From positions 105,278-169,277 of IMG/VR virus record IMGVR_UViG_3300042905_002309: DNA of 64,000 bases, one strand, 5' to 3'. The DNA is from a virus (taxonomy: Duplodnaviria > Heunggongvirae > Uroviricota > Caudoviricetes). Under the pieces are notes generated by a model. The model did not search any database. It worked only from the letters and a program-made list of their open reading frames with translations, and was not told the DNA's origin. The position numbers were made by a program, and so were the translations under genes. The first letter of the stretch is position 1, and the number at the start of each line of letters is the position of its first letter. Positions 6,373-48,891 of this stretch are shown piece after piece.

Positions 6373-6396
6373 ATCCAGAACAGAAAGTAAATTAAT

Positions 6397-6729: not shown

Positions 6730-6735
6730 GTTCGT

Positions 6736-16464: not shown

Positions 16465-16491
16465 ACATAAACCGCAAATAGAAAGATACAC

Positions 16492-16617: not shown

Positions 16618-16650
16618 ACCATTAACCCCTAACAAAGAAAGGATAATATT

Positions 16651-16977: not shown

Positions 16978-17010
16978 TAGTAAATGATAAATAGTTAAGG
17001 AGTAGGAGTT

Positions 17011-34211: not shown

Positions 34212-34870
34212 TTATTTAGTTTTTTTAAAACCGAATCCTTTGTTTTTCTTCAAATTATCTTTCCACCATAAAGGTTGAAGATTTGTGTACCAAAAGGCAA
34301 TTTTAACTTGTTCGGGATCAGATAAGTCAAATACACGTAATGGTTGAATATGGTCAAAATGCCAACCAAACTTGCCATGATTTTCCCATGTCATACCATC
34401 TTTAAACTGGTTTTCTATATATTCTTTTAATTTTAATGGTGTGCAACCTAAATAATCTAAAGTTTTACGATCTTTAATATATTTATTACGTTTTAATACT
34501 TGTCTAATACGACTACGTTGACTACCAATACATTTCTGAATTGGATCAGTATTTCTTCGTAATTTATTTAATTCACGACGTTTTTCTCTATTTTTTCTCT
34601 AGACTTCCTCTTTAATTCATTAACATGATCAGGCATTTCTTCACGACGGGTTCTTGCATACTCAGATTTTTCTTGTATATGATTTAAATAATATTGTTTA
34701 TTATACACATTACGATGATTATTATCATTTAATCTAGCATTATTATCACACCAATATCTGATTAACGCTTTACTTACATTAAGTATATTACCAATTTCAC
34801 CATAAGATTTACCTTCTTCTCTTAGAGTTTTTGCTAATATCTTTTCTTCATTTGTATGTATTATTTTCAT
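34212..34870 (-). pseudogene. HNH homing endonuclease with N-terminal HTH, split by a frameshift
   Basis: ORF 34568-34870 (HTH: GKSYGEIGNILNVSKALIRYW) continues in the -1 frame from the A6 run at 34591-34596 through LDYLGC...QFKDGMTWENHG...WHFDHIQP...TNLQPL. Confidence 0.8.
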
Positions 34871-35529
34871 GTTGGTGGATCAACTAAACTCACCTGCACC
34901 TGACCATAAGCAAAATCAAACGAACAAGGGATATCTTCACTACTTTGATAATCGTAATCAAATCCACCTAATTGCGTAATAAATGCATGTTTATAATCAA
35001 ATTTAATTATATTCACATTATATTCATCTTTAGCATACAATGTCATAGTTGTTTGATATGCATCGTATGGTTTTTGCATTTTAATTTCTTTATAGCGTAT
35101 TGGATTATTTTTCGAGTCTTTTCTCATAGCATCAATAACTTTTTGTGGATCATTATCAAATTCTGCAAATCTAGGGTCCATACCACTTGTATCAGGATTA
35201 TTTAAAATGTATAACCACTTCCAGAGGTAAAAATAGTTATTATAACGGTTATCAATTGTAAATTTAACCTTTGTTGTAGGATATCTAGAACGTGTTTGAC
35301 TAGTAATATGCATAGTTTGTCCCATAAAACTCATGGGAATTTCACTAATAGTGTGTGTAGGTAGATTTATACTAGCTACAGAATATTGCATACTATCTTG
35401 ATTTAAAAAATCTTTACCACGTTCACAACGAGTTAATTCATTTAATAAAATTGGTGGTGTTGTAATAATTAAAATAAATTTATCAATTTTTGACTTATTG
35501 AGTACTGTTTGTGGTGTATTTTCTAACAT
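34867..35529 (-). CDS. 3: Tail tube terminator / tail completion protein (T4 gp3-like)
   Basis: LNKSKIDKF, YSVASINLP, KVKFTIDNRYNNYFYLWKW, FKYKHAF-like FDYKHAFITQLGGFDYD tube-fold motifs. Confidence 0.8.
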   Translation of the reverse strand: MLENTPQTVLNKSKIDKFILIITTPPILLNELTRCERGKDFLNQDSMQYSVASINLPTHTISEIPMSFMGQTMHITSQTRSRYPTTKVKFTIDNRYNNYFYLWKWLYILNNPDTSGMDPRFAEFDNDPQKVIDAMRKDSKNNPIRYKEIKMQKPYDAYQTTMTLYAKDEYNVNIIKFDYKHAFITQLGGFDYDYQSSEDIPCSFDFAYGQVQVSLVDPPT

Positions 35530-35547
35530 GATCCATTTCCTTTGAAG

Positions 35548-35561
35548 TATTTAGCTAAATA
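35548..35561. promoter_or_regulatory. Palindromic back-to-back late promoters
   Basis: Perfect 14-bp palindrome TATTTAGCTAAATA places TAAATA on each strand between divergent late genes. Confidence 0.7.
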
Positions 35562-35574
35562 ATTAGAAATAACA

Positions 35575-36153
35575 ATGAAAACATTCAAACAATTTATTTT
35601 AGAATCAGAAGCAGATGTAAATGAGCGTTGGTTAGAACTTCGTAGCGAAGAATTAGCGAATATTATTGGAGAATTTAGACACAGAAAACCAAATACAACA
35701 CAAGGTTGGACAGTTGTACCAGCAGCCAGATTGATTAAAATTTGGAATGATTATGCCAAAACAGGGGTAATTCGTGATACTAGAGGTTTAGATGTAATCG
35801 TAGATAGAATGATTAGAAATACAATAAGATTGAGTATAAATACAGAATTATTAGGACATACCCAAAACGAACCAAAATATCTATTTGATGAATATGATGA
35901 TGAACACCCCATGACACCAGAAGAAGATGAAGCTTTAGGTGATTTTATTGTAGATCAAAATGGTGCTTGGAGATTAAGTGATTATGGTTTACCAAAATTA
36001 GGGAAAATTTTATTTTCACTTATGTCAGCTACAGGTGATGTTGAGAAATTGTTATTGGTAGATCAGATGCTTAATGTTGTCCACGCTAGATCAGATTTAG
36101 CTGGTATGTTTGTAGAGGGTGGACAAAAAACCTTGAATAAATTAGCGAGTTAA
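35575..36153 (+). CDS. Hypothetical protein with capsid-targeting-like N-terminus
   Basis: Starts MKTFKQFILE; late promoter upstream. Confidence 0.8.
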   Translation: MKTFKQFILESEADVNERWLELRSEELANIIGEFRHRKPNTTQGWTVVPAARLIKIWNDYAKTGVIRDTRGLDVIVDRMIRNTIRLSINTELLGHTQNEPKYLFDEYDDEHPMTPEEDEALGDFIVDQNGAWRLSDYGLPKLGKILFSLMSATGDVEKLLLVDQMLNVVHARSDLAGMFVEGGQKTLNKLAS

Positions 36154-36154
36154 T

Positions 36155-36535
36155 ATGAAAACATTCAAACAATTTATGCTAGAGAGTCAGAATCTATCTG
36201 ATGAACTATTCCATATGAGAACTCGTTGGAAAGAAATGGGCGTAGATGTCTATATCCATGCAAGAACAGATGAATTAAATTTATCAACTATTAAGGTAGA
36301 TAAAGATAAACGTGGACAAGGACTTGGAACTACGGTTATGAAGGAAATATTGGATTTTGCACAAAAACATAACTTGAGAGTAACTTTAACACCTTCAAAA
36401 GATTTGGGTGCAACATCTGTAGGAAGATTAGTTAAATTTTATCGAAGTTTTGGGTTTGTACCTAATAAAGGAAGAAATAAAGATTATCGTATAAGTGATA
36501 CTATGATTTGGACACCAAAAGGGATAAATAATTAA
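36155..36535 (+). CDS. GNAT-family acetyltransferase with capsid-targeting-like N-terminus
   Basis: Starts MKTFKQFMLE; acetyl-CoA motif IKVDKDKRGQGLGT; LVKFYRSFGF. Confidence 0.85.
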   Translation: MKTFKQFMLESQNLSDELFHMRTRWKEMGVDVYIHARTDELNLSTIKVDKDKRGQGLGTTVMKEILDFAQKHNLRVTLTPSKDLGATSVGRLVKFYRSFGFVPNKGRNKDYRISDTMIWTPKGINN

Positions 36536-36536
36536 T

Positions 36537-37097
36537 ATGAAAACTGACATGAGACAAAACGAATTTTACAAGAATTATAAAGAAGTAATTGAAGAAGACT
36601 GGAAATCAACTTTAGGTAAAGGTCTTGCAATGGGCGCAATAGGAGCATCAACGGCTTTAGGTGGAATGTCTGCACCGCATACTAAAGAAGTAAATAGAAA
36701 AGAACTCAGCATCATTGATAATCAAATAAAACAAAAAATTGATAACCTTATACAGGCTATTGCACAACAAGAATCAGGGCATTTAAATAACCCTAATTAT
36801 GCCGTTGGTGATAATGGTAGAGCATTTGGAAAATATCAAATACATGTGGAAGTAATTAAAGATGTTAATAAAGTATTTAAAACTAATTATAAACATAAAG
36901 ATATGTTTGATCCATATAAAGCAGAAAAGGTTTTAAAATTATATCTAGAACATTATGGTAGAATATTCGTAAAAAAACACAAAAGACTTCCTACAAATAA
37001 AGAACTTGCAGCAATATGGAATGGTGGACCTAATGGATATAAGAAAAGTAAAGCAAGAATTTATGCAGATAAAGTATTGAAGTTTTTAAATGTATAA
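36537..37097 (+). CDS. Lysozyme-like muramidase / lytic transglycosylase
   Basis: AIAQQESG (catalytic Glu), VGDNGRAFGKYQIH, AAIWNGGP motifs. Confidence 0.8.
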   Translation: MKTDMRQNEFYKNYKEVIEEDWKSTLGKGLAMGAIGASTALGGMSAPHTKEVNRKELSIIDNQIKQKIDNLIQAIAQQESGHLNNPNYAVGDNGRAFGKYQIHVEVIKDVNKVFKTNYKHKDMFDPYKAEKVLKLYLEHYGRIFVKKHKRLPTNKELAAIWNGGPNGYKKSKARIYADKVLKFLNV

Positions 37098-37129
37098 TAG
37101 GTTACAAACTTTTTAAGGGATTAGACTAA

Positions 37130-37537
37130 ATGATGAAAAAGGAAATAGAATTAGAGATTGTAGCACAAACGCTCTATGCTGAGGCGCGTGGAGAAGGGGA
37201 GGAAGGTTTAAGAGCAGTTGGTACGGTTATTATGAATCGTTCTAAAACTCACAAACTACCCTTATCCAATGTGTGTCTACAACCTAAAGCTTTTTCTTGT
37301 TGGAATTCTGGTAGCACAGATATCCCAATTGATGAACCTGATGTCTATGAAATTTGTGTTCAAATAGCTGATGAAATGGTATCAGAATTATTTGAACCTT
37401 ATCCATTCAAACACATCAATCCAACTAATTATATTACTGTAAAATTATACAATTCTAGAAGCTGTCCGACTTGGGCTAAAGATCAAATAGGCGAAGTAGT
37501 TGGTAATCACATCTTCTTCGAATTGCAATACTGGTAA
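37130..37537 (+). CDS. SleB-like cell wall hydrolase (Hydrolase_2 type)
   Basis: AQTLYAEARGEGEEG..AVGTVIMNR, QPKAFSCWN, IGEVVGNHIF. Confidence 0.88.
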   Translation: MMKKEIELEIVAQTLYAEARGEGEEGLRAVGTVIMNRSKTHKLPLSNVCLQPKAFSCWNSGSTDIPIDEPDVYEICVQIADEMVSELFEPYPFKHINPTNYITVKLYNSRSCPTWAKDQIGEVVGNHIFFELQYW

Positions 37538-39268
37538 TTAACGTAATTGATTCTGGTCAAACATACTCCAGCCATCGCATAACATATCTTCCATTTCGAT
37601 ATTAGTTCCCATACCACTTTTAGTACCAATAAATACTGGTGTTAATTCATCATCTCCATAACTTCGTTTATATTGATCTAATGCAAAATTAGCATCTTCA
37701 TCATAATAACCTTTTGAAATTTTTAATGGTTTACCATTATCATCATATTGAACAACTTCAAATATACTCTCGGCAATTACATTAAATAATGCGAATAATG
37801 CCCACACTAAAGCCATTACCCTATCATCATAAATACCAGTACTACTTATTTTACTCCAAGTACCATTAGGACGCTTTGTAAAGGTTTCCAACTCTTGAAC
37901 AGTAGCTACATCATATAAACTTACGGCTTTAAGTGAATTCATCCAATAACGCATATTAGATACACCATCATACTTAACATTTGTAGAACTAACAATACCC
38001 CTTTTCTCATAATCAATAGATTTATCAGAACTATAAGAAACAATACGTTCATAATTATAAGGAGCATTTGATAAACCGTTTAATATCTCACCTCCCATAT
38101 TATTGCGTTCAATTAATAGATATGGCATACCCCACTGTTTAGCAATACTGAAAATTTCTCTAGTAAAAGTAGTCGTATCAACATATTTATTATTGTACAC
38201 GAAGACTTGTTTAATATTCGTAAGATCGGTAATATCTAAACCTTGAATACAAGATGCCGCACTACCAACACCATCAGCTACGTCAACACCCATTACATAA
38301 ATCTTCTTAGCATCAGGAGTTTCCCAAACTTTATATTCAGGTGAATTAATAATGTCAGGAGTTCGTGTATATGATCTAAGCTCCTTCAAAAAGGCTCCAT
38401 CAATAGCACTTTCACCAGTTTCCAAGAACTTACAATCATATTCTTGATCCCATTTTTGTAAATCACCATTTAAGTCAGAAAGTGCTTGTTTTTTGAAAAC
38501 AGCATCTCTACCAGGGAATTCATCCCACTTAATCTTCTCATGATGCCATTCATTTTCGTTACGTTCTGCTCCTGAATAAGCTTTATAAAAGAAGTTACCT
38601 GTTCCATTGGCAGTAGAAATCATAATTACCTTGGAATTCATAGAAGATGAAATAACAGGTAAAACAGATGTAAAGAATTGTTCTGCCATATGACCTTCAA
38701 CGTGGGCAGCTTCATCAATCAACAATACATTAATAGCAGAACCACGACCAGCAGATGATGCAGTTGTACTTACAAAGATACGACTATCATTACTAAACAC
38801 CATATTAGTCTTAGCATAGTCTTTAACTCCGGGTTTTAACCAGTTAGGCAAATATTCATAAGCTGTTCTTACACGACCTAAGATTTCGATAGCTGTCTTT
38901 TCCTTGTTAGCGACAATTAAAACACTCTTATCCTTCTGGAAACAAGTGTACCAGAGTGCGAAAATAGTAATAATGGTAGATTTACCAATCTGACGAGAAG
39001 CTAATAATACAACACGATTATGTTTTGCGAAGCTTTTAAGTACTCTTTTTTGGGATTTGTACAATTTAATAACTTCTTTACCACGATCCAAGTTTACGAT
39101 TGTGAAGAAGTTTTCGGCAAAGTAGACAATATCTTTTCTAGCTTTGTCTAACATTTTTGTACGTTCAGGTGTCCATTCACACTCATAATTACCTGTAGGA
39201 AGGTTCTGATTATTTAAATAAAATTGATTTGATTCTGTTTTTTCCATTGATTTAACTCTCGTTTTCAT
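37538..39268 (-). CDS. 17: Terminase large subunit (T4 gp17-like)
   Basis: DIVYFAENF, LASRQIGKS Walker A, LLIDEAAH Walker B, ISTANG, QEYDC, MGVDVADG, IERNNMG, DDRVMAL. Confidence 0.97.
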   Translation of the reverse strand: MKTRVKSMEKTESNQFYLNNQNLPTGNYECEWTPERTKMLDKARKDIVYFAENFFTIVNLDRGKEVIKLYKSQKRVLKSFAKHNRVVLLASRQIGKSTIITIFALWYTCFQKDKSVLIVANKEKTAIEILGRVRTAYEYLPNWLKPGVKDYAKTNMVFSNDSRIFVSTTASSAGRGSAINVLLIDEAAHVEGHMAEQFFTSVLPVISSSMNSKVIMISTANGTGNFFYKAYSGAERNENEWHHEKIKWDEFPGRDAVFKKQALSDLNGDLQKWDQEYDCKFLETGESAIDGAFLKELRSYTRTPDIINSPEYKVWETPDAKKIYVMGVDVADGVGSAASCIQGLDITDLTNIKQVFVYNNKYVDTTTFTREIFSIAKQWGMPYLLIERNNMGGEILNGLSNAPYNYERIVSYSSDKSIDYEKRGIVSSTNVKYDGVSNMRYWMNSLKAVSLYDVATVQELETFTKRPNGTWSKISSTGIYDDRVMALVWALFALFNVIAESIFEVVQYDDNGKPLKISKGYYDEDANFALDQYKRSYGDDELTPVFIGTKSGMGTNIEMEDMLCDGWSMFDQNQLR

Positions 39269-39308
39269 AAATATTTAGGTAAAGTAAATACAGTTTGCAA
39301 CTTTTTTT

Positions 39309-39926
39309 ATGAAAACGCTTGAAAATAAAGAAAAATTAAGAATTTGTCGTCAAAATTGGCGATTAAAAAATAAAGAACATATCAAAAAATATAATAAAAA
39401 ATATCAAAAAGAACATCCAGAATATTTTAAGAAATATCAAGATGAGCATTCTGAATATTATAACGAACAAACAAAAGAGTGGAAATTACATAATAAAGAA
39501 CATATTAAATTATATAATAAAAAGTGGCAGATAGATAATCCTGATTATCAAAAGAATTATAAAAAGGAACTTCGTAAAAATAATCCAAATTTTAAATTGT
39601 ATAGTAATATGAGAAGTGTGTTATGGCAATTTTTAAAATCTGAAAAAACACTATCCACAAACGAATATCTTTGTTGTACACAAGAACAACTTTGGACTTA
39701 TTTAGAAACACAATTCAGAGATGGTATGACTAGAGAAAATTATGGTTCAATATGGCATGTAGATCATATAATACCACTACAATTCTTTATAGATAATGAC
39801 CTTATGGATGAAACCAGTAAGAAGATTGCTTGTCATTATGGTAATTTACAACCGTTATTTGCACAAGAGAACTTTTCAAAAGGCAATAAAATACCAGAAA
39901 AGAAGAATTTTAATATTTTTTATTGA
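39309..39926 (+). mobile_element. Free-standing HNH homing endonuclease divergent from terminase
   Basis: YLCC...YLETQFRDGMTRENYGSIWHVDHIIP...CHYGNLQPLFAQENFSK. Confidence 0.85.
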
Positions 39927-39976
39927 AATGATTATAGAAAATACTAAATATTTGAAGAAATAGGAGAAAACAATTT

Positions 39977-40849
39977 ATGGACAAAAATAATGACGCATTG
40001 GCAGCAGCTTATGGATTAGTATTAGAAAGTAAAGATAGTACTACAGTTGGTAATCTTAAAGTCGGACAAACATTTGATGGTGCCGATAAGAAAGCCAAGG
40101 ACGAAACAACGAAGAATGTAAAGCTAGACAAGCCTGTAGCTGGACCTTCCCAAGGCGACTCAACGGTTGCTGATGGTAAAGGTAAGCCATTGAAGAAGGC
40201 TGAGAAGAAGGTTGAAGAGAATAAGGGAATCCCAACCACATTTGATAAACTTTACGCTTCTGTCTTAAATGAAGAAGAAGGTTTGGGTGATATTGCTCCA
40301 TCAACTGATATCGAAGATTCTTCATTTGATGAAGATACTGGTGACTTTCCAGAAGGCGAACTTGAAGATGAAGAAGGTCTTGGAGAAGAGGGTGCCGAAG
40401 GTTTTGATGCAGTCGCAGCTTTCAGTGAATTAGCAGCCGCTATTCAGGGTATTGCTGACAAACTTGCTGGTAGTTCTCCTATGGGCGAAGAAGGTCTTGG
40501 AGAAGAAGATGAGTTTGGTGCAGAAGGTGGAGAAGAAGGAACCGAAGAGGATTTTGGTGCAGAACCTACCGCTGAAACACCTTTCAAGGAATCCGCATCA
40601 ATTGGTAAAATCCCTGCTCCTACAACCCCAAAGGTTGCTAAGAAGACATCATTTAACCCAAAGATGACAAAGACTCCTAAGAACAGTATTGGTAAGTCTG
40701 GTGCTGGTAAAGCTGGTCTTCCCGCTGGTAAAGATCGTTCAGGAACACTTTCAAAGGCTCCTGCAACCAAGTTTGGCCCTAAGATGAGTCAAACTGTTGG
40801 TGGTGCTGGACCAATCGCCAAGGGTGGTAACGAATCCTTAATTAAGTAA
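39977..40849 (+). CDS. Low-complexity late protein (acidic centre, basic Gly/Lys/Pro tail), possible head internal/scaffold protein
   Basis: TAAATA and AGGAG upstream; VLE^SK near N-terminus; E/G-rich centre. Confidence 0.75.
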   Translation: MDKNNDALAAAYGLVLESKDSTTVGNLKVGQTFDGADKKAKDETTKNVKLDKPVAGPSQGDSTVADGKGKPLKKAEKKVEENKGIPTTFDKLYASVLNEEEGLGDIAPSTDIEDSSFDEDTGDFPEGELEDEEGLGEEGAEGFDAVAAFSELAAAIQGIADKLAGSSPMGEEGLGEEDEFGAEGGEEGTEEDFGAEPTAETPFKESASIGKIPAPTTPKVAKKTSFNPKMTKTPKNSIGKSGAGKAGLPAGKDRSGTLSKAPATKFGPKMSQTVGGAGPIAKGGNESLIK

Positions 40850-40874
40850 AAAACAAATTAAAAACAAATGTTTT

Positions 40875-40902
40875 AAGCCCCACAATAAATGTGGGGTTTT
40901 TT
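40875..40902 (+). terminator. Rho-independent terminator
   Basis: AAGCCCCACA-ATAAA-TGTGGGGTTT followed by T run. Confidence 0.85.
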
Positions 40903-40942
40903 GTTGGTGGAATTCTGACCACACAATGATAAATACTTATAC

Positions 40943-42586
40943 ATGAAAACATTTTCCGAATTTATCAACGAATCAGCCATAGACTTACCAAAAAATAGTC
41001 TCGATCCTACAGTCTTCGATTTCTTTGATGATAGATTACCTGTACTTAAAGCTGGTATTAAATACCAAATAGCCAAAGATGTTGACGTTATCGAAGAAAT
41101 TCTTCATATAAAAAGATTCTATATCGTAGGAAGCATCCTCTCACGTAAATATTCGAAAAATGCCGATATCGATGTTACTGTCGAAGTAGATGAAAGAAAT
41201 ATCGACGAAATGCTAGAAGCTAAAGCTTTTAAACTCGTAGAAAAAATGAACGGTAAATTAGCCGTTGGTACTACACATCCTATTAATTACTACATCTTTG
41301 TAAAAGAAGATGAAGAAATTGAAGAAGGTCGCTTCGAAGGTATCTATGACGTAATCAATGACAAATGGATCAAACAACCTAAAGACTTACAATTTAATAT
41401 CAATAACTACTTAAATAAATTTGAGAACACTGTTTCAAGAGCAGATTTAATGACAGCAAAACTTCGTAGAGATATTATCGACTTTAAAGAGCTAACCACA
41501 TTTTCTAAAGATGAAATTAAAGACTTACACGAATTACTACAGATCAAACTCTATAAGATTAATACTGATATCGAAGCATTGATTGATTTTAAGAAAACAA
41601 TTAAGCGTAAACGTGATGAAGCCTTTAACCGTCCATTAGACCCTGACGAAATTGAGAAATTCCAAACTCGTAATCATCTTCCAGATAATGTCGTATACAA
41701 AATGTTGGAAAAGTATTACTATTGGGATTTTATTCAACGTCTTGAAGCAATCATAGGTGAAGATGCCAAACTCACTGCAAAGGATGTACGTAAAGTATCA
41801 CACGCAGAAAAAGAATTCATGGAAGAAAGTTTTAAAACACCTAAACAAACAGATGAATTTTACCAAGCTAATCTAGTTGTATTTGGTGCTTATATGGCTG
41901 ATACACACGAAGTCATTTTAAAATTAGGATTAAAACAACATTCTCATATGAGTTTACATTTTCCGATCTATAATCAGAATTGTATAATGTTCAGATATTT
42001 ACCTTCTACCCAAACTATTTATTGGTGGTTTAAACGAATGTCACCTAAAGCAGGATTAGTTGCCGCCAAAGAAGCTTTAGAGAAAAAGGGATACAAGGTT
42101 CGAAAACAAGTAGATATGGATGTTGGGAGTGGTTATGAAGACACTCATAATAGAGTTGAGGTTAAAGGTGATTCAGAAGATCGTACACTTATGCCTGAAT
42201 CTTTCAAACACTTTATGTTCTTAGAAGACGCTAAACCTGTTAAAGCTAAAGAGAAAATGAAAGTAGATATGCCAGAAACTCCTACATGGAAGATACGTAG
42301 TAGAGCCGATGGTAAGGTTGTTCCTGAATATAAAAAGGTTGACCCTGCACGAGCAGATTTGAATAATTTTTTGAAACCTTACTTGGCATTAGATTCTTTT
42401 AAACCTGTAAAGTTAGGGTTAGTTAAGCTCGTTGGTGGTAAGACTGTAAATGCTGTAGAGATGCTTATAAATGGATTTCCACCTACTAAACCATTAACTG
42501 ACCAAGAACCTTACAAGTGGTTAGGTAATACTCAGATAATGGTTTACAAAGATGTAGATGGTAATTATTGGATGAAGAAGGGTTAA
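40943..42586 (+). CDS. Pol-beta-superfamily nucleotidyltransferase-domain protein with capsid-targeting-like N-terminus
   Basis: Starts MKTFSEFINE; YIVGSILSRKYSKNADIDV fits GS-x9-DxD; late promoter 7 nt upstream. Confidence 0.75.
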   Translation: MKTFSEFINESAIDLPKNSLDPTVFDFFDDRLPVLKAGIKYQIAKDVDVIEEILHIKRFYIVGSILSRKYSKNADIDVTVEVDERNIDEMLEAKAFKLVEKMNGKLAVGTTHPINYYIFVKEDEEIEEGRFEGIYDVINDKWIKQPKDLQFNINNYLNKFENTVSRADLMTAKLRRDIIDFKELTTFSKDEIKDLHELLQIKLYKINTDIEALIDFKKTIKRKRDEAFNRPLDPDEIEKFQTRNHLPDNVVYKMLEKYYYWDFIQRLEAIIGEDAKLTAKDVRKVSHAEKEFMEESFKTPKQTDEFYQANLVVFGAYMADTHEVILKLGLKQHSHMSLHFPIYNQNCIMFRYLPSTQTIYWWFKRMSPKAGLVAAKEALEKKGYKVRKQVDMDVGSGYEDTHNRVEVKGDSEDRTLMPESFKHFMFLEDAKPVKAKEKMKVDMPETPTWKIRSRADGKVVPEYKKVDPARADLNNFLKPYLALDSFKPVKLGLVKLVGGKTVNAVEMLINGFPPTKPLTDQEPYKWLGNTQIMVYKDVDGNYWMKKG

Positions 42587-42891
42587 GCGTAAACCGATCT
42601 AAGTATTAATGCTTTTCCAAATTTTCTGTGTGGGTGTTTGGCTTCTACATTATCAAAAAAGTTCTGTGTTACTCGATTACGAATATTTTGCATAGTCTTG
42701 TTATTCTCATACACTTCCTCTTTTACTTGCATTAACTTAATCATATCGATTGTTTCACTCATATAATGCTTAATAGCGGGAATCTTAATTTCAATATTAT
42801 CAAAGTCTTTATTATTTTCTGTGCAAAATCTATCTAGTGTATCTATAGCTGATAAAAGAGATATCCAACGTGCTTCTGTTTCTTTATTCAT
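42583..42891 (-). CDS. Hypothetical protein (102 aa)
   Basis: Coupled ORF in leftward operon. Confidence 0.65.
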   Translation of the reverse strand: MNKETEARWISLLSAIDTLDRFCTENNKDFDNIEIKIPAIKHYMSETIDMIKLMQVKEEVYENNKTMQNIRNRVTQNFFDNVEAKHPHRKFGKALILRSVYA

Positions 42892-42892
42892 A

Positions 42893-43315
42893 TTATTTAC
42901 CTTTCGTTTTTAGTTCAATTATTACTTCTTCAAAAAATGGTATTCCTCTTAGTATAATACCTTTCAAGTCGTTCTCACTTGTTATAAAATCATACTCTTT
43001 TATATGTCGTTTGTCAAGGATAATTTTAACATTTTCAATAAAATTACCTCTGGCTATAGGATCATTTATACCACGTTTAATATAATTGTTTACCTCTTGT
43101 TGGAGTAAGAATTTTAATCTACGATAAGGGCCAGATACTTTTAAATACTCTGGTGTATCAAATAAACGTTTGATCTTTCTACAGATAGTACAAAGATAGA
43201 CATTATCTAATTGTTTGCGAGTGGTCACACCGTATTTTTTAAGATTACTACGATATGGTCTATTACGCATGTTAATAGACTTCCCACAGAAATGACATCT
43301 AACTAATTTAGCCAT
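42893..43315 (-). CDS. Hypothetical zinc-finger protein
   Basis: CHFC...CTIC pairs. Confidence 0.7.
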   Translation of the reverse strand: MAKLVRCHFCGKSINMRNRPYRSNLKKYGVTTRKQLDNVYLCTICRKIKRLFDTPEYLKVSGPYRRLKFLLQQEVNNYIKRGINDPIARGNFIENVKIILDKRHIKEYDFITSENDLKGIILRGIPFFEEVIIELKTKGK

Positions 43316-43778
43316 TTTGAACTTTTCCTGTAAAGGCGTTTACAAATCCGTGTAGTGTTGCTAAGATTCGATTATTGTCACAGGTTACATCAGTCTTTTT
43401 AAGTTTCTGTATGATGTTATTGTATGTGTGTTCAAGAATTTTGAAATCGTCCTTAAACTCTTCGGAAGTTTTTTCTTTTTGGTTTAATTCTGTACGGATA
43501 ATCTCTTCCATTGTCTTTTTAAATAACTTCATGAAAGCTTCTAAATCTGTTTGTGATGTACCTACAGTCCCAAGCATAACACCTTTATTATAAGAACTAT
43601 GCGATCCTAATTTAGTCCAATATTCTTCTGCTGGTAAATTAGTTACTTGTAATGGGGTTGGTGTAGTGATATTACTTCTATTACCCGTAATCATTTGGGT
43701 GTGTTTAGTGACATCAGTAATAAAATCTAATGGAAGAATTGGATTATCAGACATGGGTATTAGCTCCAATTTGACCAA
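43308..43778 (-). CDS. Hypothetical protein (156 aa)
   Basis: Coupled ORF. Confidence 0.6.
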   Translation of the reverse strand: MVKLELIPMSDNPILPLDFITDVTKHTQMITGNRSNITTPTPLQVTNLPAEEYWTKLGSHSSYNKGVMLGTVGTSQTDLEAFMKLFKKTMEEIIRTELNQKEKTSEEFKDDFKILEHTYNNIIQKLKKTDVTCDNNRILATLHGFVNAFTGKVQNG

Positions 43779-44160
43779 GTTTTAGTGGTTCTGTGACAAT
43801 AGCGGTAGTAAAATTAAATACGATTAAATTAGGTTGTTGACATGAACTACAGGGGAAGGTATTACGTAAACTTAATCTTACAGGTACAATATTTCTCGTT
43901 TTACAATATGCACAACTCACTTCGACACTTTGTTCTGTATCGGCAAGTTTCTTTTTCAAATCCAACAAAGCTATGGTTTTGATGGTATGACTATGTATCC
44001 AATTATTAGATACTATACCGATTAGAAAAATTAATGCAAAACATACTAAAAATGTTGCAAGATAATGACCTGTCATTAATCCAATACCTAAAGATAGAAT
44101 TAATGCTGGTATAGTTACGTAAGAGAGACTTGTGAGAATTGCTTTTATAATTTGTTTCAT
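43747..44160 (-). CDS. Membrane protein with C-terminal zinc ribbon
   Basis: Two hydrophobic helices followed by CAYC...CSSC. Confidence 0.7.
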   Translation of the reverse strand: MKQIIKAILTSLSYVTIPALILSLGIGLMTGHYLATFLVCFALIFLIGIVSNNWIHSHTIKTIALLDLKKKLADTEQSVEVSCAYCKTRNIVPVRLSLRNTFPCSSCQQPNLIVFNFTTAIVTEPLKLGQIGANTHV

Positions 44161-44195
44161 AGTAACAATTTACCACACTTTTCTAGATTGTCAAG

Positions 44196-44588
44196 TTAAA
44201 TCATCATTGATTCTATATCACTTGAAATTTTCTTGATGGCATTGATACATTGATTAATATATGAAATATCCTTCTTGAGTGTTTCCTTTTGTGCTTTATC
44301 AAGTGTTGCACATGTTTTTAAAGTCTGTTTTAATGTAAAACGAGTTTTAACTAAGGTTTCGTAATTATCCCCAAGTTGATTAACAATTCTATCTAAAGGA
44401 TAAGGAAGAAATTTGGTGTCATGTGACTTACGATTTTCTTCTTCTGGAATAGCATCTGCAACCGATGAAAAAAGATCGTTATGATTACTTTTAGCAGGGC
44501 CAACGGACGCTGCCCCCGATGAGGCAGACTGTCCGAAAGACTTTGACATTTGAAAATCTTCTTTTAATGCTGTTCGGAATTTATTCAT
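44196..44588 (-). CDS. Hypothetical late protein
   Basis: Starts MNKFRTALKE (capsid-targeting-like). Confidence 0.7.
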   Translation of the reverse strand: MNKFRTALKEDFQMSKSFGQSASSGAASVGPAKSNHNDLFSSVADAIPEEENRKSHDTKFLPYPLDRIVNQLGDNYETLVKTRFTLKQTLKTCATLDKAQKETLKKDISYINQCINAIKKISSDIESMMI

Positions 44589-44589
44589 G

Positions 44590-45243
44590 TTATTTCTTTA
44601 TGCCACTTTTCTTTTTGACATCTAATACACACTTTTCGAACTTGCTACCAGCTTTTTTCTTACCACCCGTAGATGCATTACAAACGGCCCAAGGATTCAC
44701 TTTTTTAGCTTCGGTAAAAGGATTCTTCTTTCCTTCTTCTTCATCCTCTTCCGACTCTGATTCATTTTCTTCTGATCCACCTTCTGCGTGTTCAGCTTCT
44801 TCTTCGGCAGGACTTTCAGATTCTTCGTGTTCTACATTTTCCTCGTCGGCAGAACCTTCTTCTTGTCCTTCTTCATTACGTTCAAATCCCTTGATAGCGT
44901 CCACTACATTAACAGGAAGTGTAAAGGTCATACCATTAAATTTGATTTGTAACCCTTCTTCACCCATACATGTTAATTCGACACCATCTGAACCTTCTGA
45001 TTCAATTTCACCAGCTTCACCTACACCATCAGTAGGTTGCATAATATCTTCGGAACCTTCGGCTCCTGCTTCGCCTTCAATGCCCATATCTTTCATAAAA
45101 TCATCTGTGGCCGCATTAAACATATCTTTTGGTTTATCTCCACAAGCATCACATTGTTCAACAGGAGATACTGCATCACTATTTGGTACAGGTATAATCT
45201 TTGCTACTAAAACAGCTTCCATAAATTGGTTAAATTTCTTCAT
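44590..45243 (-). CDS. Acidic late protein with basic C-terminal peptide
   Basis: Starts MKKFNQFME; Glu-rich centre; ends EAKKVNPWAVCNASTGGKKKAGSKFEKCVLDVKK; TAAATA plus GAAAGGA upstream. Confidence 0.8.
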   Translation of the reverse strand: MKKFNQFMEAVLVAKIIPVPNSDAVSPVEQCDACGDKPKDMFNAATDDFMKDMGIEGEAGAEGSEDIMQPTDGVGEAGEIESEGSDGVELTCMGEEGLQIKFNGMTFTLPVNVVDAIKGFERNEEGQEEGSADEENVEHEESESPAEEEAEHAEGGSEENESESEEDEEEGKKNPFTEAKKVNPWAVCNASTGGKKKAGSKFEKCVLDVKKKSGIKK

Positions 45244-45260
45244 ATTGAGTTTCCTTTCAA

Positions 45261-45554
45261 TTATTTAGTACTTTTAATCAACTTATATTCCTTTTCACAT
45301 TCACGATACATTGGTCGCTTAATTGTGTCTACATAAGTTAATAAGCCTTTATTAATACCTTCGATCATATCCTTTTCAGGTATTTCTAAAGCTTTTGGGT
45401 TTTCTTGGTCTAATCTGCACCCCAAAACCTGATATCTCTTTTGGGTTTCATCAAATTTAATCACAGTTAAAAAATATCCTAATAAAAATCCTGATTCAAC
45501 TGCATACACTTTTCTCGTAATATCCTTTTTCTTGAATATATTCAATAATTTCAT
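45261..45554 (-). CDS. Hypothetical protein (97 aa)
   Basis: ORF in leftward operon. Confidence 0.65.
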   Translation of the reverse strand: MKLLNIFKKKDITRKVYAVESGFLLGYFLTVIKFDETQKRYQVLGCRLDQENPKALEIPEKDMIEGINKGLLTYVDTIKRPMYRECEKEYKLIKSTK

Positions 45555-45564
45555 AGTAATCCTA

Positions 45565-46035
45565 TTAAAGGTTCATTGCGCTGGTGTTAGTTCCTACTAC
45601 AGAATCAACTAAATCCGTTTTAGCATCATCTTCGGATTCACCAAGTTCTTCAAGTTCTTTCTTGTAGTAATTTAAGATTTGTGAAGGGGTGGTACGAAAC
45701 CACTTAGCAGTTTCAACATTAGGTATCTCTTTTGGAGTTATATGGAACCCTTCACTCTTTAAGTTTAAATCTGATAAACGCTCACGAGCGAGTTCTTCAA
45801 TCTTTTCAATAAGATTACGCTTAATCTGTGCATAAGGAGTGTGTGCATCAAGATCAGCTTTAAATTCATCCATTCCATACACCTCTTGAATATCCTCTTG
45901 TGTTATAGAAAAATCAATTCTTGCTGGAATAATAAATCTCACCACATTGTTCTCAATTCCGAGAGCTTCTGTAATTGGAGTCTGTTCTCTACAAATATCC
46001 AAATATCGTTCAATTAAACTAATATCTTCACCCAT
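45565..46035 (-). CDS. Hypothetical protein (156 aa)
   Basis: AAGGAG SD, TAAATA upstream; CRE.TPITE^A pattern. Confidence 0.7.
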   Translation of the reverse strand: MGEDISLIERYLDICREQTPITEALGIENNVVRFIIPARIDFSITQEDIQEVYGMDEFKADLDAHTPYAQIKRNLIEKIEELARERLSDLNLKSEGFHITPKEIPNVETAKWFRTTPSQILNYYKKELEELGESEDDAKTDLVDSVVGTNTSAMNL

Positions 46036-46098
46036 ATATTTCTCCTTTGTGTAATATCTTATCAGATTTTAATTATTTATCAACTTTTTATTGAATGT

Positions 46099-46128
46099 TT
46101 GACAAAATGATATAAATAGTTCTATAAT
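46099..46128 (+). promoter_or_regulatory. Nested sigma70 and late promoters upstream of vWA-peptidase gene
   Basis: TTGACA 46099-46104, 18 nt, TATAAT 46123-46128, with TATAAATA at 46111-46118 inside the spacer. Confidence 0.6.
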
Positions 46129-46148
46129 GTGCGTATTAGGAGTAAATT

Positions 46149-48098
46149 ATGACCCTTTCAGAAAAAGATAAAACAAATTTAATGCGATTGTATGAGAATG
46201 TTAACCGTTTCGCTGGTATCGATCCCGCTAAAGCAGCTATTATTAAAGACGCAGAACGCAAAATGGATCAGGCTTATAACCTCGTTGACCAAGTAGACCC
46301 ATTCTATTACAGCACTTTAACCAAAATGCTTCCTGATAATCGTAACATCATGGCTCAATTCGGTATCCAAACTATGCAAACCGATGGTAAACTTCTTTAC
46401 TATAATCCTGTCTTTGTAAATAAATTACCAGTTGATGCAGTATTCACTATTGTAGTACACGAAATTATGCACGTTGCTTTTGGACATCATATCCTTTTTG
46501 CTGATATCGATCCTAAAAATCAAAACTTATGGCATATTGTCAATATCGCTTGTGACTTGTCTATTAATGATCTTTTAAAGAATCGTAGCGGTTTTATCAG
46601 TGGTGGATTAATCTTAGCTGGTCAAGGTACGTATAAAGATTTGCCAAGTGGTTTAGATGCACGACAATATTATGACCTATTAGTTAAAAAGTATTCTGGT
46701 GAGGATAAAAATCAGGAACCCCCACAAGAACCTCAAGATGGTGAAGATGAAGAAGATTCTGGCGACCAAGAAGGTGAACAAGATGGTGGCGATCAGGGTG
46801 GTGACGAAGGTGAAGATGGTGAAGGTGATTCAGAAGGTCAAGAAGGTGGCGAGGAAGGCCAAGAAGACGGTGATGGAAGTGGTGAGGGTGAAGGTGAAGG
46901 TGAACCTTCTGACGGTTCTGGAAGCGGTTCTGGTAAAGGAAAAGGTAAGGGTAAAGGTAGTTCTGGTGGAGCAGGTGGTGGCGAGGGTGATGAAGAGGGT
47001 GTAGAGTCAACGGATATTAATGTACCATCTTTCAAAGACTTCGTAAAACAAGCTGATGCTAATAATAAAGCAGATATCGAAAAGGGTAAAGCAGCTAAAG
47101 GTGCTCCTGCTGAGAAACACCAAGACCAAATTGAAAAAGAATTAGATATTCCTACTAAAGATATTATAGATTATCAAAAAACTGGTGCATTCAAACCTGA
47201 TCCTAATGTTACAGAGAAAAATCAACGTAATGCTATGGCAGAACACGAGAAACAAGTTGAAGAAGAACGTCATGACGCTGAAATGAAAGAAGCTTCCGCA
47301 GCTAAACATGGTGTAAGCTATGGTGATGCTAGAAGTAAATTAGGTGTAGGTGATTGGAAAGAATCTTTGGAGAAGACTACTCAACTTAATTGGAGAGAGA
47401 TTTTACGTGAATTTATTAATACCCCAAGTCCAGAACGTCCAACTTATAATAGACCACCACCAAGATTCGTAGATGAATATGGTAAACAAGGACTTATACC
47501 TCGTGGTATGACAGGTCAAACTATTAAGGAATTAGATTTCCTTGTAGATGTATCTGGTTCTATGCCTGATGCAGTAGTTGCAAAAGTATTCGGGGAAATT
47601 GCAGATATCGGAACTGAGTTAAAAGGTAAATGTAATGTACGCTTATCTACCTTCAATACTCGTATCCAATCTGAAAGAATGTTTACCAATAGTGGTGAAT
47701 CTTTCGAATCTATTCAAGCTTTGGAATCTGGTATGAGAGCTATGTTACCAAGAGATGAAGAACATATGATGCGTTTCGATGAAATGCCTATATCTTTCGC
47801 TAACTTTAAGTTTGTAAAAACTGGTGGTGGAACTGATGTAACGTCTGCTCTTACCGCTACTAAACACTTGAAACCAAGACCAGCTTTGGTAATCGTATTC
47901 ACAGATGGTGACTTTATGGAAAATGAATACGCTAGTTTACGTAGTTTTACTGATGATGGTATGAAAATTGTATTCTTGCTTACTACAGAAGATACTTCTC
48001 ATATCAAAAATAATGCATACTTTGATCCAGTTAAATATAGCATATTCGCAAACGTAGGTACTGTATATAACTTGTTGGATTACTCTGCATATACCTGA
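46149..48098 (+). CDS. Metallopeptidase (DUF2201-type HExxH) plus C-terminal vWA domain protein
   Basis: TMQTDGKLLYYNP, VHEIMHVAFGH, NIACDLSIN; Gly/Glu-rich linker; LNWREILREF; intact MIDAS DVSGSM...GGGTD...FTDG. Confidence 0.9.
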   Translation: MTLSEKDKTNLMRLYENVNRFAGIDPAKAAIIKDAERKMDQAYNLVDQVDPFYYSTLTKMLPDNRNIMAQFGIQTMQTDGKLLYYNPVFVNKLPVDAVFTIVVHEIMHVAFGHHILFADIDPKNQNLWHIVNIACDLSINDLLKNRSGFISGGLILAGQGTYKDLPSGLDARQYYDLLVKKYSGEDKNQEPPQEPQDGEDEEDSGDQEGEQDGGDQGGDEGEDGEGDSEGQEGGEEGQEDGDGSGEGEGEGEPSDGSGSGSGKGKGKGKGSSGGAGGGEGDEEGVESTDINVPSFKDFVKQADANNKADIEKGKAAKGAPAEKHQDQIEKELDIPTKDIIDYQKTGAFKPDPNVTEKNQRNAMAEHEKQVEEERHDAEMKEASAAKHGVSYGDARSKLGVGDWKESLEKTTQLNWREILREFINTPSPERPTYNRPPPRFVDEYGKQGLIPRGMTGQTIKELDFLVDVSGSMPDAVVAKVFGEIADIGTELKGKCNVRLSTFNTRIQSERMFTNSGESFESIQALESGMRAMLPRDEEHMMRFDEMPISFANFKFVKTGGGTDVTSALTATKHLKPRPALVIVFTDGDFMENEYASLRSFTDDGMKIVFLLTTEDTSHIKNNAYFDPVKYSIFANVGTVYNLLDYSAYT

Positions 48099-48108
48099 AA
48101 GGACTAAT

Positions 48109-48891
48109 ATGAATTTATTTGAACAAATGTATAAAGATGTGTTGTTAAATGAGAGTATGATACAAATTCCTTCTAACTCAGAAGTTATATCATTATTGAA
48201 TACTGTTATAGCAGAAGAAAATCAAAGAGAAATTGATAATCATAAAAACGCTTTTGCAACTATGCAAAAAGAATTCCCTAAAGCACCTAAAGATGCTATC
48301 ATTAGAAGACTTCCAAAACCTAAAGTAAATATCTTTGAACCAGATCAACCAGCTTTTATTCTTGAAGCTGTAAAAGCTGCAATAAGAATTTATGAAAAAT
48401 TCTATTCTATTGCATCTAATCCTAACAGCAAGGTCGAAGATTATAAAGTTGCTAAACATCAAATCGCTAAAGATTGGTATCCTATCAGAGGTGAAGCAAA
48501 AGTCGGTGGAAAACAACCAGCATCTATAGCCGTTATTCGCTTATTGAATACTGCATTAGGTTTCAAACATGATGATATCTTTAAAATACCTCTTTACCCT
48601 AATCCAGAAGGTTATATGATGCCACGCTTAGACTTAATCCCTTATGTCATAGCACGTAAAGCTGTTATGGATGCTTTCAAAGCTGGTAAAATTACAGAAG
48701 AACGATCAAAACAAATGATTCGTGACTTATCCAAATTGGTGCGAACTGATGTACAAAACGTTGAGGATGCCGATATCAATAAGTATCATGAAGATCATAA
48801 TACAGAAGCACCTTTAATGAAAACTGAACCTGAGATCGGTCCATCAGAAGTGGCTACAGCATTAAATCAAATTCCTAAACGTTACAAATAA
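48109..48891 (+). CDS. Hypothetical protein (260 aa)
   Basis: AAGGA SD; starts MNLFEQMYKDVLLNE; cotranscribed with vWA-peptidase. Confidence 0.75.
   Translation: MNLFEQMYKDVLLNESMIQIPSNSEVISLLNTVIAEENQREIDNHKNAFATMQKEFPKAPKDAIIRRLPKPKVNIFEPDQPAFILEAVKAAIRIYEKFYSIASNPNSKVEDYKVAKHQIAKDWYPIRGEAKVGGKQPASIAVIRLLNTALGFKHDDIFKIPLYPNPEGYMMPRLDLIPYVIARKAVMDAFKAGKITEERSKQMIRDLSKLVRTDVQNVEDADINKYHEDHNTEAPLMKTEPEIGPSEVATALNQIPKRYK

Follow-up and report, generated by a model that had tools for sequence, protein, structure and literature searches.

The internal proteins IPII and IPIII of phage T4 are small, basic and DNA-associated, and they are unrelated cargos that have only a tag in common and are encoded at a hypervariable locus. 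The tag of IPII and IPIII, the capsid-targeting sequence (CTS; Mullaney & Black 1996, reviewed in PMC9026906 and PMC3012670), reads MKTYQEFIAE in the T4 record; residues 4 and 7 act in targeting and residues 8 and 10 in processing (PMC9026906). T4 Alt, a head-carried ADP-ribosyltransferase that is processed by gp21 and delivered together with the DNA (T4 record; PMC9026906), is a precedent for an injected enzymatic effector. Alt starts with MELITE, without a tag of the IPII/IPIII type. Some head-internal proteins of giant phages are cleaved at several sites, and the cleavage motif and propeptides of these phages differ from the T4 type. According to PMC5694885 and PMC7411985, many head-internal (ejection or inner-body) proteins of SPN3US and the phiKZ-like giant phages are matured by a gp21-related prohead protease. 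These phages belong to a different lineage and are not known to have a short universal 10-residue tag. The Dar antirestriction proteins of phage P1 are loaded into the capsid via N-terminal targeting regions and injected; they are likewise head cargo that counters host defence, but their targeting sequences and head assembly system are probably unrelated to those considered here.

The 64,000-nucleotide stretch analysed in this study (the window) comes from an uncultured, T4-like, deep-branching phage of 219 kb, the terminase of which is at most 37.5% identical to that of any phage in the collection searched. As in T4, one genome encodes a protease of the gp21 type, a scaffold of the gp22 type and the capsid protein gp23, and unrelated cargos at a hypervariable locus have only a tag in common. 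This tag is of the MKTYQEFIAE type: positions 1–3, 7 and 10 are the same, Phe replaces Tyr at position 4, and Ile or Met is found for Ile at position 8. The four functional positions of T4 (4, 7, 8 and 10) are kept. In contrast to the T4 proteins, the cargos here are predicted enzymes or an acidic helical protein, one cargo contains internal leader-like junctions, and the system is known from sequence.

Leaders and late-promoter-like motifs in the window

The first-pass annotation had proposed a family of late genes with T4 capsid-targeting-like leaders, quoting five N-termini and several looser variants ending in L/I-x-E. All five N-termini were present (Table 1), and the L/I-x-E sites at 39977, 46149, 48109 and 36537 were confirmed. 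A leader regular expression applied to every ATG-started frame of the 161-kb record matched five genes only, and the strict DNA pattern gave three matches in this phage and none in a reversed control. A position-specific score (PSSM) trained on 132 independent leaders reached 32–34 bits for 35575, 36155 and 40943 and 12 bits for 45243- (p about 1e-4), and all remaining genes, including 44588-, 39977, 46149, 48109 and 36537, were at background level. Therefore, the family has three strong members and one moderate member, and the looser variants are indistinguishable from chance by motif alone, although some of them nevertheless have N-termini conserved in orthologs. The first 10 residues showed low pLDDT in AF2 models (48 in 35575 and 41 in the nucleotidyltransferase, NTase), and thus lie outside the predicted folds.

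Of the 10 named genes, 6 had TAAATA in the 60 nt ahead of their start, compared with 47 of 276 genes genome-wide, and the other four lay directly downstream in the same operons, in agreement with the earlier statement that most of these genes follow this motif. TAAATA also preceded the sheath, tube, hub and wedge genes and the protease operon.

Table 1. Features of the leader locus (positions in the window; genes are cited by their start; a slash marks a putative cleavage site).
Feature	Position	Strand	Remarks
TAAATA late-promoter-like motif	35556..35561	+	19 nt upstream of 35575 gene
CTS-like strict leader MKTFKQFILE/S	35575..35604	+	34 bits; predicted cleavage after Glu10
192-aa all-helical cargo	35575..36153	+	Mature pI 4.9
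126-aa GNAT acetyltransferase	36155..36535	+	Strict leader MKTFKQFMLE/S; 2 nt behind 35575 gene
186-aa SLT-like muramidase	36537..37097	+	Gly/Ala-rich hydrophobic segment; SLT match just below Pfam cut-off
135-aa Hydrolase_2 cell-wall hydrolase	37130..37537	+	Neighbour; no leader
TAAATA motif	39945-39950		Upstream of 39977 gene
290-aa acidic low-complexity protein	39977..40849	+	VLE/S; pI 4.6
TAAATA motif	40930..40935	+	13 nt upstream of NTase gene
547-aa multi-domain nucleotidyltransferase	40943..42586	+	Strict leader MKTFSEFINE/S; about 140 homologs
Glu295, internal junction ...EFMEE/S	41825..41827	+	End of roughly 300-aa NTase unit
Glu428, internal leader-like junction SFKHFMFLE/D	42224..42226	+	Low-pLDDT linker 404-466
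130-aa protein	44196..44588	-	MNKFRTALKE/D, on first-pass list; background score; co-transcribed behind 45243-
217-aa very acidic protein	44590..45243	-	Moderate leader MKKFNQFME/A; 12 bits; pI 4.2
TAAATA motif	45262-45267		Upstream of 45243- gene
649-aa DUF2201 metallopeptidase-vWA protein	46149..48098	+	Pfam
260-aa protein	48109..48891	+	Second leader type MNLFEQMYKDVLLNE/S; background CTS score

Distribution of the leader in viral genomes

In viral contigs, the leader gave at least 134 matches at no fewer than 120 loci, at least 128 of them at ORF starts; as a negative control, 596 Gb of bacterial and archaeal genomes yielded only 33 matches, mostly not at ORF starts. Among the matches listed, 121 cargos fell into 61 clusters, i.e., at least 61 unrelated families, and TAAATA lay upstream of 73 of 132 leader genes compared with 265 of 1552 other ORFs (p = 6e-21). 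Equal frequency of the leader on non-late genes had been named at first pass as an argument against the family. The leader was instead enriched behind TAAATA, but the comparison is not clean, since T4 gp61.1 is tagged and the 90 nt ahead of its gene contain no late promoter motif. The pattern with Phe or Tyr at position 4 matches only ipII, ipIII and gp61.1 in T4, and gp61.1, whose small gene adjoins that of the primase in the early-gene region, is not a known internal protein. Therefore, the tag alone is no proof of packaging.

The shared N-terminus could instead serve outside the capsid, as a translation-initiation or mRNA element, a cassette recombination boundary or a tag for another enzyme. 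The identity of the first 23 nt of the 35575 and 36155 leaders fits recent copying, the Lys second codon fits highly expressed genes, in which it is common, and, besides the tagged early-region gp61.1, another N-terminal tag family (radical-SAM) occurs elsewhere in the genome of the present phage. However, synonymous codons differed at the fixed positions of the 132 leaders, and this variation of codons with fixed residues indicates selection on the peptide. In addition, position 11, which is unconstrained by the pattern, was A, S, C or G in 70% of the matches listed, which suggests a small residue as expected for a cleavage site. No candidate modifying enzyme adjoined the leader genes, and Peptidase_S77 accompanied the tag in 6 of 10 large contigs that carry a leader, including all three that were at least 90% complete. 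A recombination boundary would be compatible with capsid targeting without replacing it, and a purely non-capsid role is considered very improbable.

In close relatives, cargos are swapped and leaders kept at a hypervariable locus that is flanked by the wedge gene and the terminase gene. There, a single HAD-like domain forms the N-terminal part of fusions to differing muramidase domains, with the leader MITFKHFIKE/S in relative L129 and MNNFEKLIYEVLTE/A in L130; at the same locus, L130 encodes a GNAT with the leader MESFKSFSEE. The second leader type occurred on other cargos of close relatives, with seven N-terminal matches against about 0.2 expected. The strict tag was absent from Syn9, S-PM2, P-SSM2, P-SSM4 and KVP40, which means that not all T4-like phages have it, and no cultured phage was found that bears it on these cargos and for which a virion proteome is published.

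Prohead genes and predicted cargos

No S77, Gp23 or Portal was found in the IMG/VR record. The head genes were reached via a 219,033-bp contig of another assembly, which overlaps the record by 2,577 nt at 100% identity. The record itself does not contain the protease and scaffold, and this overlap is their sole link to it. The contig encodes Portal_T4 and a 223-aa Peptidase_S77, followed by a T4_CASP-like scaffold and Gp23. His and Ser form the catalytic pair of gp21 (PMC12991175), and H78 and S132 of the protease align to H85 and S140 of T4 gp21. In the gp22-like scaffold, [LIVM]-x-E sites occur at a density of 6.8 per 100 aa, compared with a proteome mean of 1.9 +/- 1.1 and 7.8 in T4 gp22. 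Judged from these sequences, the phage encodes a matching gp21-type protease, scaffold and capsid protein.

The 192-aa cargo was modelled by AF2 with a pLDDT of 88 and a pTM of 0.85 and had no match in the PDB with E<=0.001; its close homologs have MKTF, MITF or MISF leaders and its distant homologs other N-termini. The GNAT assignment was borne out by Pfam (Acetyltransf_7/10/1 above cut-offs), and GNAT homologs exist both with and without the leader. The NTase assignment stayed below the Pfam cut-off but was backed by an invariant G-S...D-x-D motif and by a fold match of its core to AadA, MNT and CdnD (Z about 7). No ART domain was found in this phage; these enzymes belong to families different from that of Alt. 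Of the enzymatic toolkit proposed at first pass, GNAT and NTase bear the leader. The domains of the metallopeptidase-vWA protein were confirmed (DUF2201 and vWA), but the membership of this protein, the LYE of which is kept in just one partial ortholog, and of the 260-aa protein, which has only two distant homologs, is unsupported by the PSSM.

E10, S11, G63, S64, D75 and D77 were invariant among 38 aligned NTase homologs. The invariance of E10-S11 despite varying leader length favours a leader outside the predicted fold; on the other hand, the invariant pair could be a feature of the mature domain rather than a cut mark. The leader and linkers of NTase showed low pLDDT, below 50 at residues 298-305. 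The junction at Glu295 is kept in orthologs as F-x-x-E/[SA], and homologs of about 300 aa stop there; that at Glu428 appears in orthologs as SFK[HDQ]F[MV]x[LIR]E. The protein may also be cut at these two leader-like junctions, for which processing in SPN3US and the phiKZ-like phages is a precedent.

The tag might be a processing or assembly propeptide only, on core or filler proteins that are cut and degraded or expelled before or during packaging and hence are not injected effectors. The acidic, low-complexity neighbours 39977 and 45243- are more core- or scaffold-like than enzyme-like, T4 gp22, gp67 and gp68 likewise start with short L/I-x-E peptides, and NTase contains 16 [LIVM]-x-E sites. 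On the other hand, the three strict-tag cargos are predicted to be folded, two of them as enzymes, and have 1.6–2.9 L/I-x-E sites per 100 aa compared with 6.8 in the scaffold. Furthermore, the identical tag leads to stable packaged proteins in T4 (PMC9026906). A propeptide-only role is thus regarded as unlikely for the tag. The 39977 protein itself may be a head-core or filler protein that is processed: its N-terminal end is kept in orthologs as ILE/N and LTE/S and does not resemble the strict CTS by PSSM. The N-terminus of 44588- is kept in L129 as MDKFRQIFKE/D, without a CTS score.

The muramidase assignment of 36537 is borderline by Pfam, and the protein may be a membrane-tethered (SAR-type) endolysin that acts in lysis from within and is not packaged, its IEE/D site being functionless. 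SAR endolysins usually consist of a hydrophobic segment followed by a catalytic domain, and 36537 has a weakly hydrophobic Gly/Ala-rich segment (about residues 27-43) ahead of its SLT-like domain; relatives have an SLT-like (L129) or Phage_lysozyme (L130 and L131) domain at the same locus, and its N-terminus gave a background CTS score. However, homology links this N-terminus (...NEFYKNYKEVIEE/DWKS) to a junction inside the leader-bearing fusion protein of L129, and in L129 and L130 the junction and muramidase stand behind a domain of roughly 110 aa with a CTS-type or type-2 leader, which would be odd for a secreted endolysin. The neighbouring 37130 hydrolase, rejected as a family member because it has no leader, is probably the endolysin. 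In T7, the internal core protein gp16 has a lytic transglycosylase (SLT-type) domain, resides in the capsid and is ejected at infection. It shows that a transglycosylase can be packaged and is a functional analogue of 36537 and the L129 fusion, although it is much larger and has no T4-type tag. We regard the endolysin reading of 36537 as quite possible, at somewhat less than even chances.

Probable capsid-internal proteins of the T4 type

The products of 35575, 36155 and 40943, and probably that of 45243-, are likely to be located inside the capsid in the manner of T4 IPII and IPIII. By analogy with T4, their genes would be transcribed late, during prohead assembly, from TAAATA-type promoters, and the 10-residue peptide (M-K-T-F-x-[QE]-F-[IM]-x-E) would dock each protein on the prohead scaffolding core. 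The gp21-type serine protease would then cut after Glu10 at [IM]-x-E/S to free the mature cargo in the head; the cargo would remain with the packaged DNA in the virion and be injected into the next host alongside it, where it may affect the host, possibly before transcription starts, as first proposed. The locus had been put forward as an undescribed system, but the sharing of only a CTS by diverse proteins has already been described in T-even phages (PMC3012670, PMC9026906). It is a new example of a mechanism known since 1996 and not a new system; what is new is the enzyme cargoes, the leader-like junctions within NTase and a second type of leader that is specific to the lineage.

Leaders within the phage genome and in T4

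The N-termini that the first-pass annotation had described as leaders resembling the T4 capsid targeting sequence (CTS) were all found at their respective start positions in the window (genes are named by window start coordinate). A regular expression applied to all ATG-started reading frames of the 161,045-bp IMG/VR record (IMGVR_UViG_3300042905_002309, G000) matched only the five genes named in that annotation. When the strict pattern, M-K-T-F-x-[QE]-F-[IM]-x-E, was back-translated and searched against the record, it gave three matches (35575, 36155, and 40943), and the reversed control gave none. A position-specific score trained on 132 independent leaders was 32-34 bits for these three genes and 12 bits (p about 1e-4) for 45243 on the minus strand, and every other gene, including 44588 (minus strand), 39977, 46149, 48109, and 36537, scored at the background level. 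The proposed leader family was therefore reduced to three strong members and one moderate member. The looser variants ending in L/I-x-E, which had been counted as equal members, were rejected because of their background scores; by itself, an L/I-x-E site among the first 20 residues occurs too often to be informative. TAAATA upstream or operon linkage was found for all of the strict-tag genes, and (N)TAAATA(N) also precedes the tail genes and the protease operon.

When F or Y was allowed at position 4, the only matches of the pattern in the T4 record were ipII and ipIII, both of which encode MKTYQEFIAE, and gp61.1, which encodes MKTFKEFIKE. Compared with the IPII/IPIII tag, the window leaders keep Phe7, Ile/Met8, and Glu10, whereas Tyr4 is replaced by Phe. 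The first 10 residues of T4 IPIII are enough for incorporation into the head, residues 4 and 7 of the T4 CTS being involved in targeting and residues 8 and 10 in processing (PMC9026906). Different proteins bearing CTS-like sequences occur in other T-even phages (PMC9026906; PMC3012670). The CTS residues (aromatic residue 4, Phe7, Ile/Leu/Met8, and Glu10) are all present in 35575, 36155, and 40943 and in part in 45243; the other named genes lack the combination.

T4 gp61.1 (NC_000866, 18966-19130, minus strand; L138:467-631 in the T4 locus) is a 54-aa hypothetical protein whose gene adjoins the primase gene. TATAAATA was not found in the 90 nt upstream of gp61.1 despite its near-perfect CTS, and gp61.1 is either an overlooked packaged peptide or a case of a tag without packaging. 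In the phage studied here, M-x-K-F-[DNR]-x-x-[ILA]-[EKL]-[EQK] opens four late genes (MDKFNQSIEK, MSKFDTLIEQ, MRKFDRAIEQ, and MNKFRTALKE), each with an L/I-x-E site thereafter, and two of the four are Pro/Ala/Thr-rich and of low complexity. These N-termini may represent a third leader type, the pattern having been picked post hoc, after the genes were seen.

Features of the phage and its relatives. L129, L130, and L131 are loci of relatives, L146 is a locus of the IMG/VR record (G000), and L152 is a head-gene contig of the same phage.
Feature	Location	Strand	Remark
Tail sheath gene, T4-type	window 31692-34151	minus	borders the 35.5-48.9 kb region
Wedge-like gene	window 34867-35529		
Large terminase gene, gp17-type	window 37538-39268	minus	within the 35.5-48.9 kb region
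MxKF-type genes, 302, 185, and 184 aa	G000 4068-7279 (L146)	minus	outside the window
MxKF-type gene, MNKFRTALKE	window 44196-44588	minus	
Second leader type	window 48109-48153		
Second leader type	L130:6572-7615, 5299-5586, 11503-12453		
Second leader type	L131:91-303		
Second leader type	L129:1672-3843		
FRDGMTRENYG-block ORF	window 39309-39926	plus	
FRDGMTRENYG-block ORF	window 34212-34394	minus	
FRDGMTRENYG-block ORFs	L152:599-1279, 16398-17003		
Protease operon	219,033-bp contig and sister assemblies		Peptidase_S77 (223 aa), three small proteins, T4_CASP-like scaffold (307 aa), Gp23 (487 aa)

Cassette site and cargo proteins

The 35.5-48.9 kb region lies between the tail sheath gene and a block of small leftward genes. 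Three contigs are syntenic with the window, with terminases 58-72% identical. The stretch from the wedge-like gene to the terminase gene (window 34867-39268) contains four genes in this phage, two in L129, five in L130, and two in L131; in another relative, L132, the two flanking genes abut with no gene between them. This stretch is a hypervariable cassette site of 0 to 5 genes, which resembles the internal-protein loci of T-even phages. Most of its genes carry leaders (the arrow marks the predicted cut), either MITFKHFIKE↓S, MKSFKEFVNE↓S, and MESFKSFSEE↓P, which heads a GNAT, or one of another kind, MNNFEKLIYEVLTE↓A.

This second, longer leader type, with the consensus M-N-L-F-E-Q-x-Y-x-x-x-L-L-x-E, is also present on the 48109 protein. 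It had seven N-terminal occurrences versus about 0.2 expected, on unrelated proteins, and is nearly confined to this lineage. Only two homologs of the 260-aa 48109 protein were found, both distant. In L129 an N-terminal D-x-D-x-T domain bears a T4-type leader and is followed by an SLT-like domain; in L130 this domain bears the second type and is followed by a Phage_lysozyme domain. This domain had no Pfam match and appeared HAD-like by eye. Judging from these sequences, the two leader types are interchangeable on one HAD-like N-terminal domain. Several paralogous ORFs interspersed with the late genes share a C-terminal block (...FRDGMTRENYG..WHVDHIIPLQFF...) and have Cys-rich or Lys-rich N-termini; they probably encode HNH-type homing endonucleases, and one is a remnant of 60 aa.

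The product of 36537, annotated as a muramidase, did match SLT, but this match was sub-threshold in Pfam and its leader score was at background. Its N-terminus, including the IEE↓D site, is homologous to an internal junction of the L129 fusion. Since a weakly hydrophobic Gly/Ala-rich N-terminal segment and an SLT-like domain are both present, 36537 may instead be a SAR-type endolysin, an explanation that we consider tenable but somewhat doubtful; its orthologs hold the segment and the muramidase behind a leader-bearing domain, which argues against it. Pfam confirmed 46149 as a DUF2201 metallopeptidase plus vWA; its place in the leader family is not supported, its score being at background. The leaderless 37130 gene gave a clear Hydrolase_2 match in Pfam.

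The 192-aa cargo encoded by 35575 was predicted with confidence to have a helical fold (pLDDT 88, pTM 0.85), with the first 10 residues disordered in the model. No PDB match was obtained at E<=0.001, the best AFDB-cluster matches had TM values of 0.48-0.55 and uninformative names, and searches of Pfam, PHROGs, ESM Atlas, PDB Foldseek, and AFDB clusters indicated no clear function. Close homologs of this protein carry MKTF, MITF, or MISF leaders, and distant ones have other starts. The identification of the 126-aa 36155 product as a GNAT was confirmed by matches to Acetyltransf_7 (32.2 bits; cut-off, 27), Acetyltransf_10 (30.2; 23.6), and Acetyltransf_1 (28.2; 20.7), and the acetyl-CoA loop (R/Q-x-x-G-x-G/A) is present as RGQGLG. 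GNAT homologs occur with and without a leader. Three of them (P0154, P0157, and P0163) start with M-T-W-N-E-x-[ED]-H-x-R-N-x-D-G-E-F-A where others have the T4-type tag, so that the GNAT cargo seems to be joined to another conserved N-terminal module, one that may resemble the linkers of phage MuF-type polymorphic toxins.

The 547-aa product of 40943 matched Pfam NTP_transf_2 (PF01909) at only 17.6 bits, below the cut-off of 21. The nucleotidyltransferase (NTase) call was nevertheless substantiated by the presence of the G-[GS]-x(9-13)-D-x-[DE] motif and the NTase alpha/beta core; residues 32-144 aligned to the AadA, MNT, and CdnD cores with Z of 6-7. The top Foldseek rows were CdnC and CdnE (E about 4e-4, TM < 0.25, rmsd about 18 A), and in VIA-align the ANT and MNT cores scored equal to CD-NTase, so that these two methods do not separate the classes. 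A profile search of the PDB and a tblastn search against cultured phages gave no match. About 140 homologs were found, nearly all of which begin with a short leader that varies in length and ends in Glu-Ser, with a conserved (I/V)(I/V)D(I/L)P block behind it; E10, S11, G63, S64, D75, and D77 are invariant in 38 aligned homologs, and fusion to an NMNAT-like domain is common in the family. The model consists of the NTase core, a helical bundle, a small alpha/beta domain, and a C-terminal domain, with low-confidence linkers between them. The linkers carry ...EFMEE↓S (Glu295) and SFKHFMFLE↓D (Glu428), both conserved in orthologs, and the Glu295 junction coincides with the end of 300-aa family members. 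These leader-like junctions would fit either a fusion of tagged genes that were once separate or a protein that is deliberately cut into pieces.

Head machinery

Peptidase_S77, Gp23, and Portal_T4 were not found in the IMG/VR record, which is 78% complete by CheckV. Extension past the record's start by exact-protein look-ups led to a 219,033-bp JGI contig; the two sequences share an overlap of 2,577 nt that is 100% identical. The record is a fragment, and the same phage continues on this contig. Samples containing this phage include JGI 3300035662 and 3300042504 and SRR11638434. The head module, portal, neck genes, and RNR gene are located 10-30 kb beyond the start of G000 (head-gene contigs L147, L150, and L152), and Portal_T4, gp13, gp14-like, and gp15 genes are present on the 219,033-bp contig and sister assemblies.

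The gp21-type protease was found on this longer identical contig and not on the IMG/VR record. Its His78 and Ser132 align with His85 and Ser140 of T4 gp21, the pair mutated for gp21 inactivation (PMC12991175). The protease gene occupies L152:10001-10672. A gp22-type scaffold gene lies beside the gp23-type capsid gene: the 307-aa candidate is encoded between the protease and Gp23 genes, its precomputed T4_CASP match being only 'faint'. In the scaffold, the density of [LIVM]-x-E sites is 6.8 per 100 residues versus a proteome mean of 1.9 +/- 1.1 (maximum, 5.8), and T4 gp22 has 7.8. This density would fit a protease of T4-like specificity. Immediately upstream of the protease operon lies a divergent gene for a 470-aa DUF2828/DUF7788 protein (L152:8421-9833, minus strand).

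Distribution and meaning of the tag

A scan of IMG/VR yielded at least 120 loci and at least 134 tag matches, and 128 of the 134 matches listed were at ORF starts. Among the 132 unique leaders of these listed matches, synonymous codons vary freely at fixed positions, indicating that conservation acts at the peptide level. Residue 11, which is free in the pattern, is Ala, Ser, Cys, or Gly in 70% of the same leaders; this preference for a small residue is as would be expected beside a cleavage site. The 121 cargos of at least 60 aa among the matches listed fell into 61 sequence clusters. Of the 132 tagged genes in this set, 73 have TAAATA in the 60 nt upstream, versus 265 of 1552 other ORFs from these loci (odds ratio 6, p = 6e-21). 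Peptidase_S77 was detected in six of 10 large tag-bearing contigs, including each of the three with a completeness of 90% or more, and the negative contigs are fragments (19-60% complete). On other viral contigs, at L053 (IMGVR_UViG_3300025288_000189) 4803-7196 and L057 639-1620, three or four different genes in tandem all start with MKTF(K/N/S/R)(Q/E)F(I/M)xE, forming local arsenals that exceed that of the window in size.

In bacterial and archaeal genomes, the same pattern occurred at only 33 places in 596 Gb, most of them short or internal frames. At least one cellular match shares its sample number and length with a viral-contig match and is thus probably a phage contig binned into a MAG. 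The cellular scan, the regular expression search, the reversed control, and the position-specific score rule out a chance origin of the three strict leaders. Virion proteomes have been published for several cultured T4-like phages. The only cultured tag carriers seen were T4 and the cyanophages S-SM2, P-TIM68, and their relatives, the last group having the tag on a different cargo, a conserved protein annotated as hypothetical. The strict tag is absent from Syn9, S-PM2, P-SSM2, P-SSM4, and KVP40 and is not universal among T4-like phages; DNA near-identical to the window was not found among cultured phages.

The tag could have a different function, for example in translation or cassette recombination or as a mark for another tag reader; selection at the peptide level, the residue 11 preference, and the link with S77 all speak against this, and we judge it very unlikely. 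A T4-like packaging route is the probable explanation. The tagged proteins would be made late, the tag would dock on the scaffold core, cleavage is predicted after Glu10 (the leader lies outside the predicted folds and residue 11 tends to be small), and the mature cargo would be retained in the head and then injected with the DNA into the host. Injection is inferred from T4 only; the alternative, in which the tagged proteins are core or filler components that are not injected, seems unlikely.

The first-pass annotation had regarded the arsenal as a candidate for an undescribed system. The principle is in fact known: unrelated proteins sharing only a CTS are loaded into T-even heads, where IPI counters a restriction enzyme and Alt is an injected enzyme. 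The new elements are the cargos (a GNAT, a widespread NTase family, and a helical protein without a PDB match), the internal leader-like junctions in the NTase protein, a second, lineage-specific leader, and measurements of how widely the tag is distributed and how specific it is to viruses. Since the mechanism is textbook for T4, the value lies in a catalogue and testable cargos and not in a new principle. It is conceivable, at rather less than even confidence, that the tag and its lineage variants are an address label across much of the environmental T4 superfamily, making the injected proteome readable from the genome; here this would comprise an acetyltransferase and an NTase polyprotein that the head protease would cut at retained internal junctions into separate effectors directed at the host or its defences ahead of phage transcription.

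If the tag works as in T4, it would be possible to predict from sequence alone which proteins an uncultured T4-like phage packages and injects. The T4 delivery tag used in phage engineering would then tolerate natural variation (Phe4, Met8, and varied residues 5 and 9) and large multi-domain cargo, and at least 61 cargo families, including the GNAT and the NTase family, would be candidate first-strike effectors, for example in anti-defence or host takeover.
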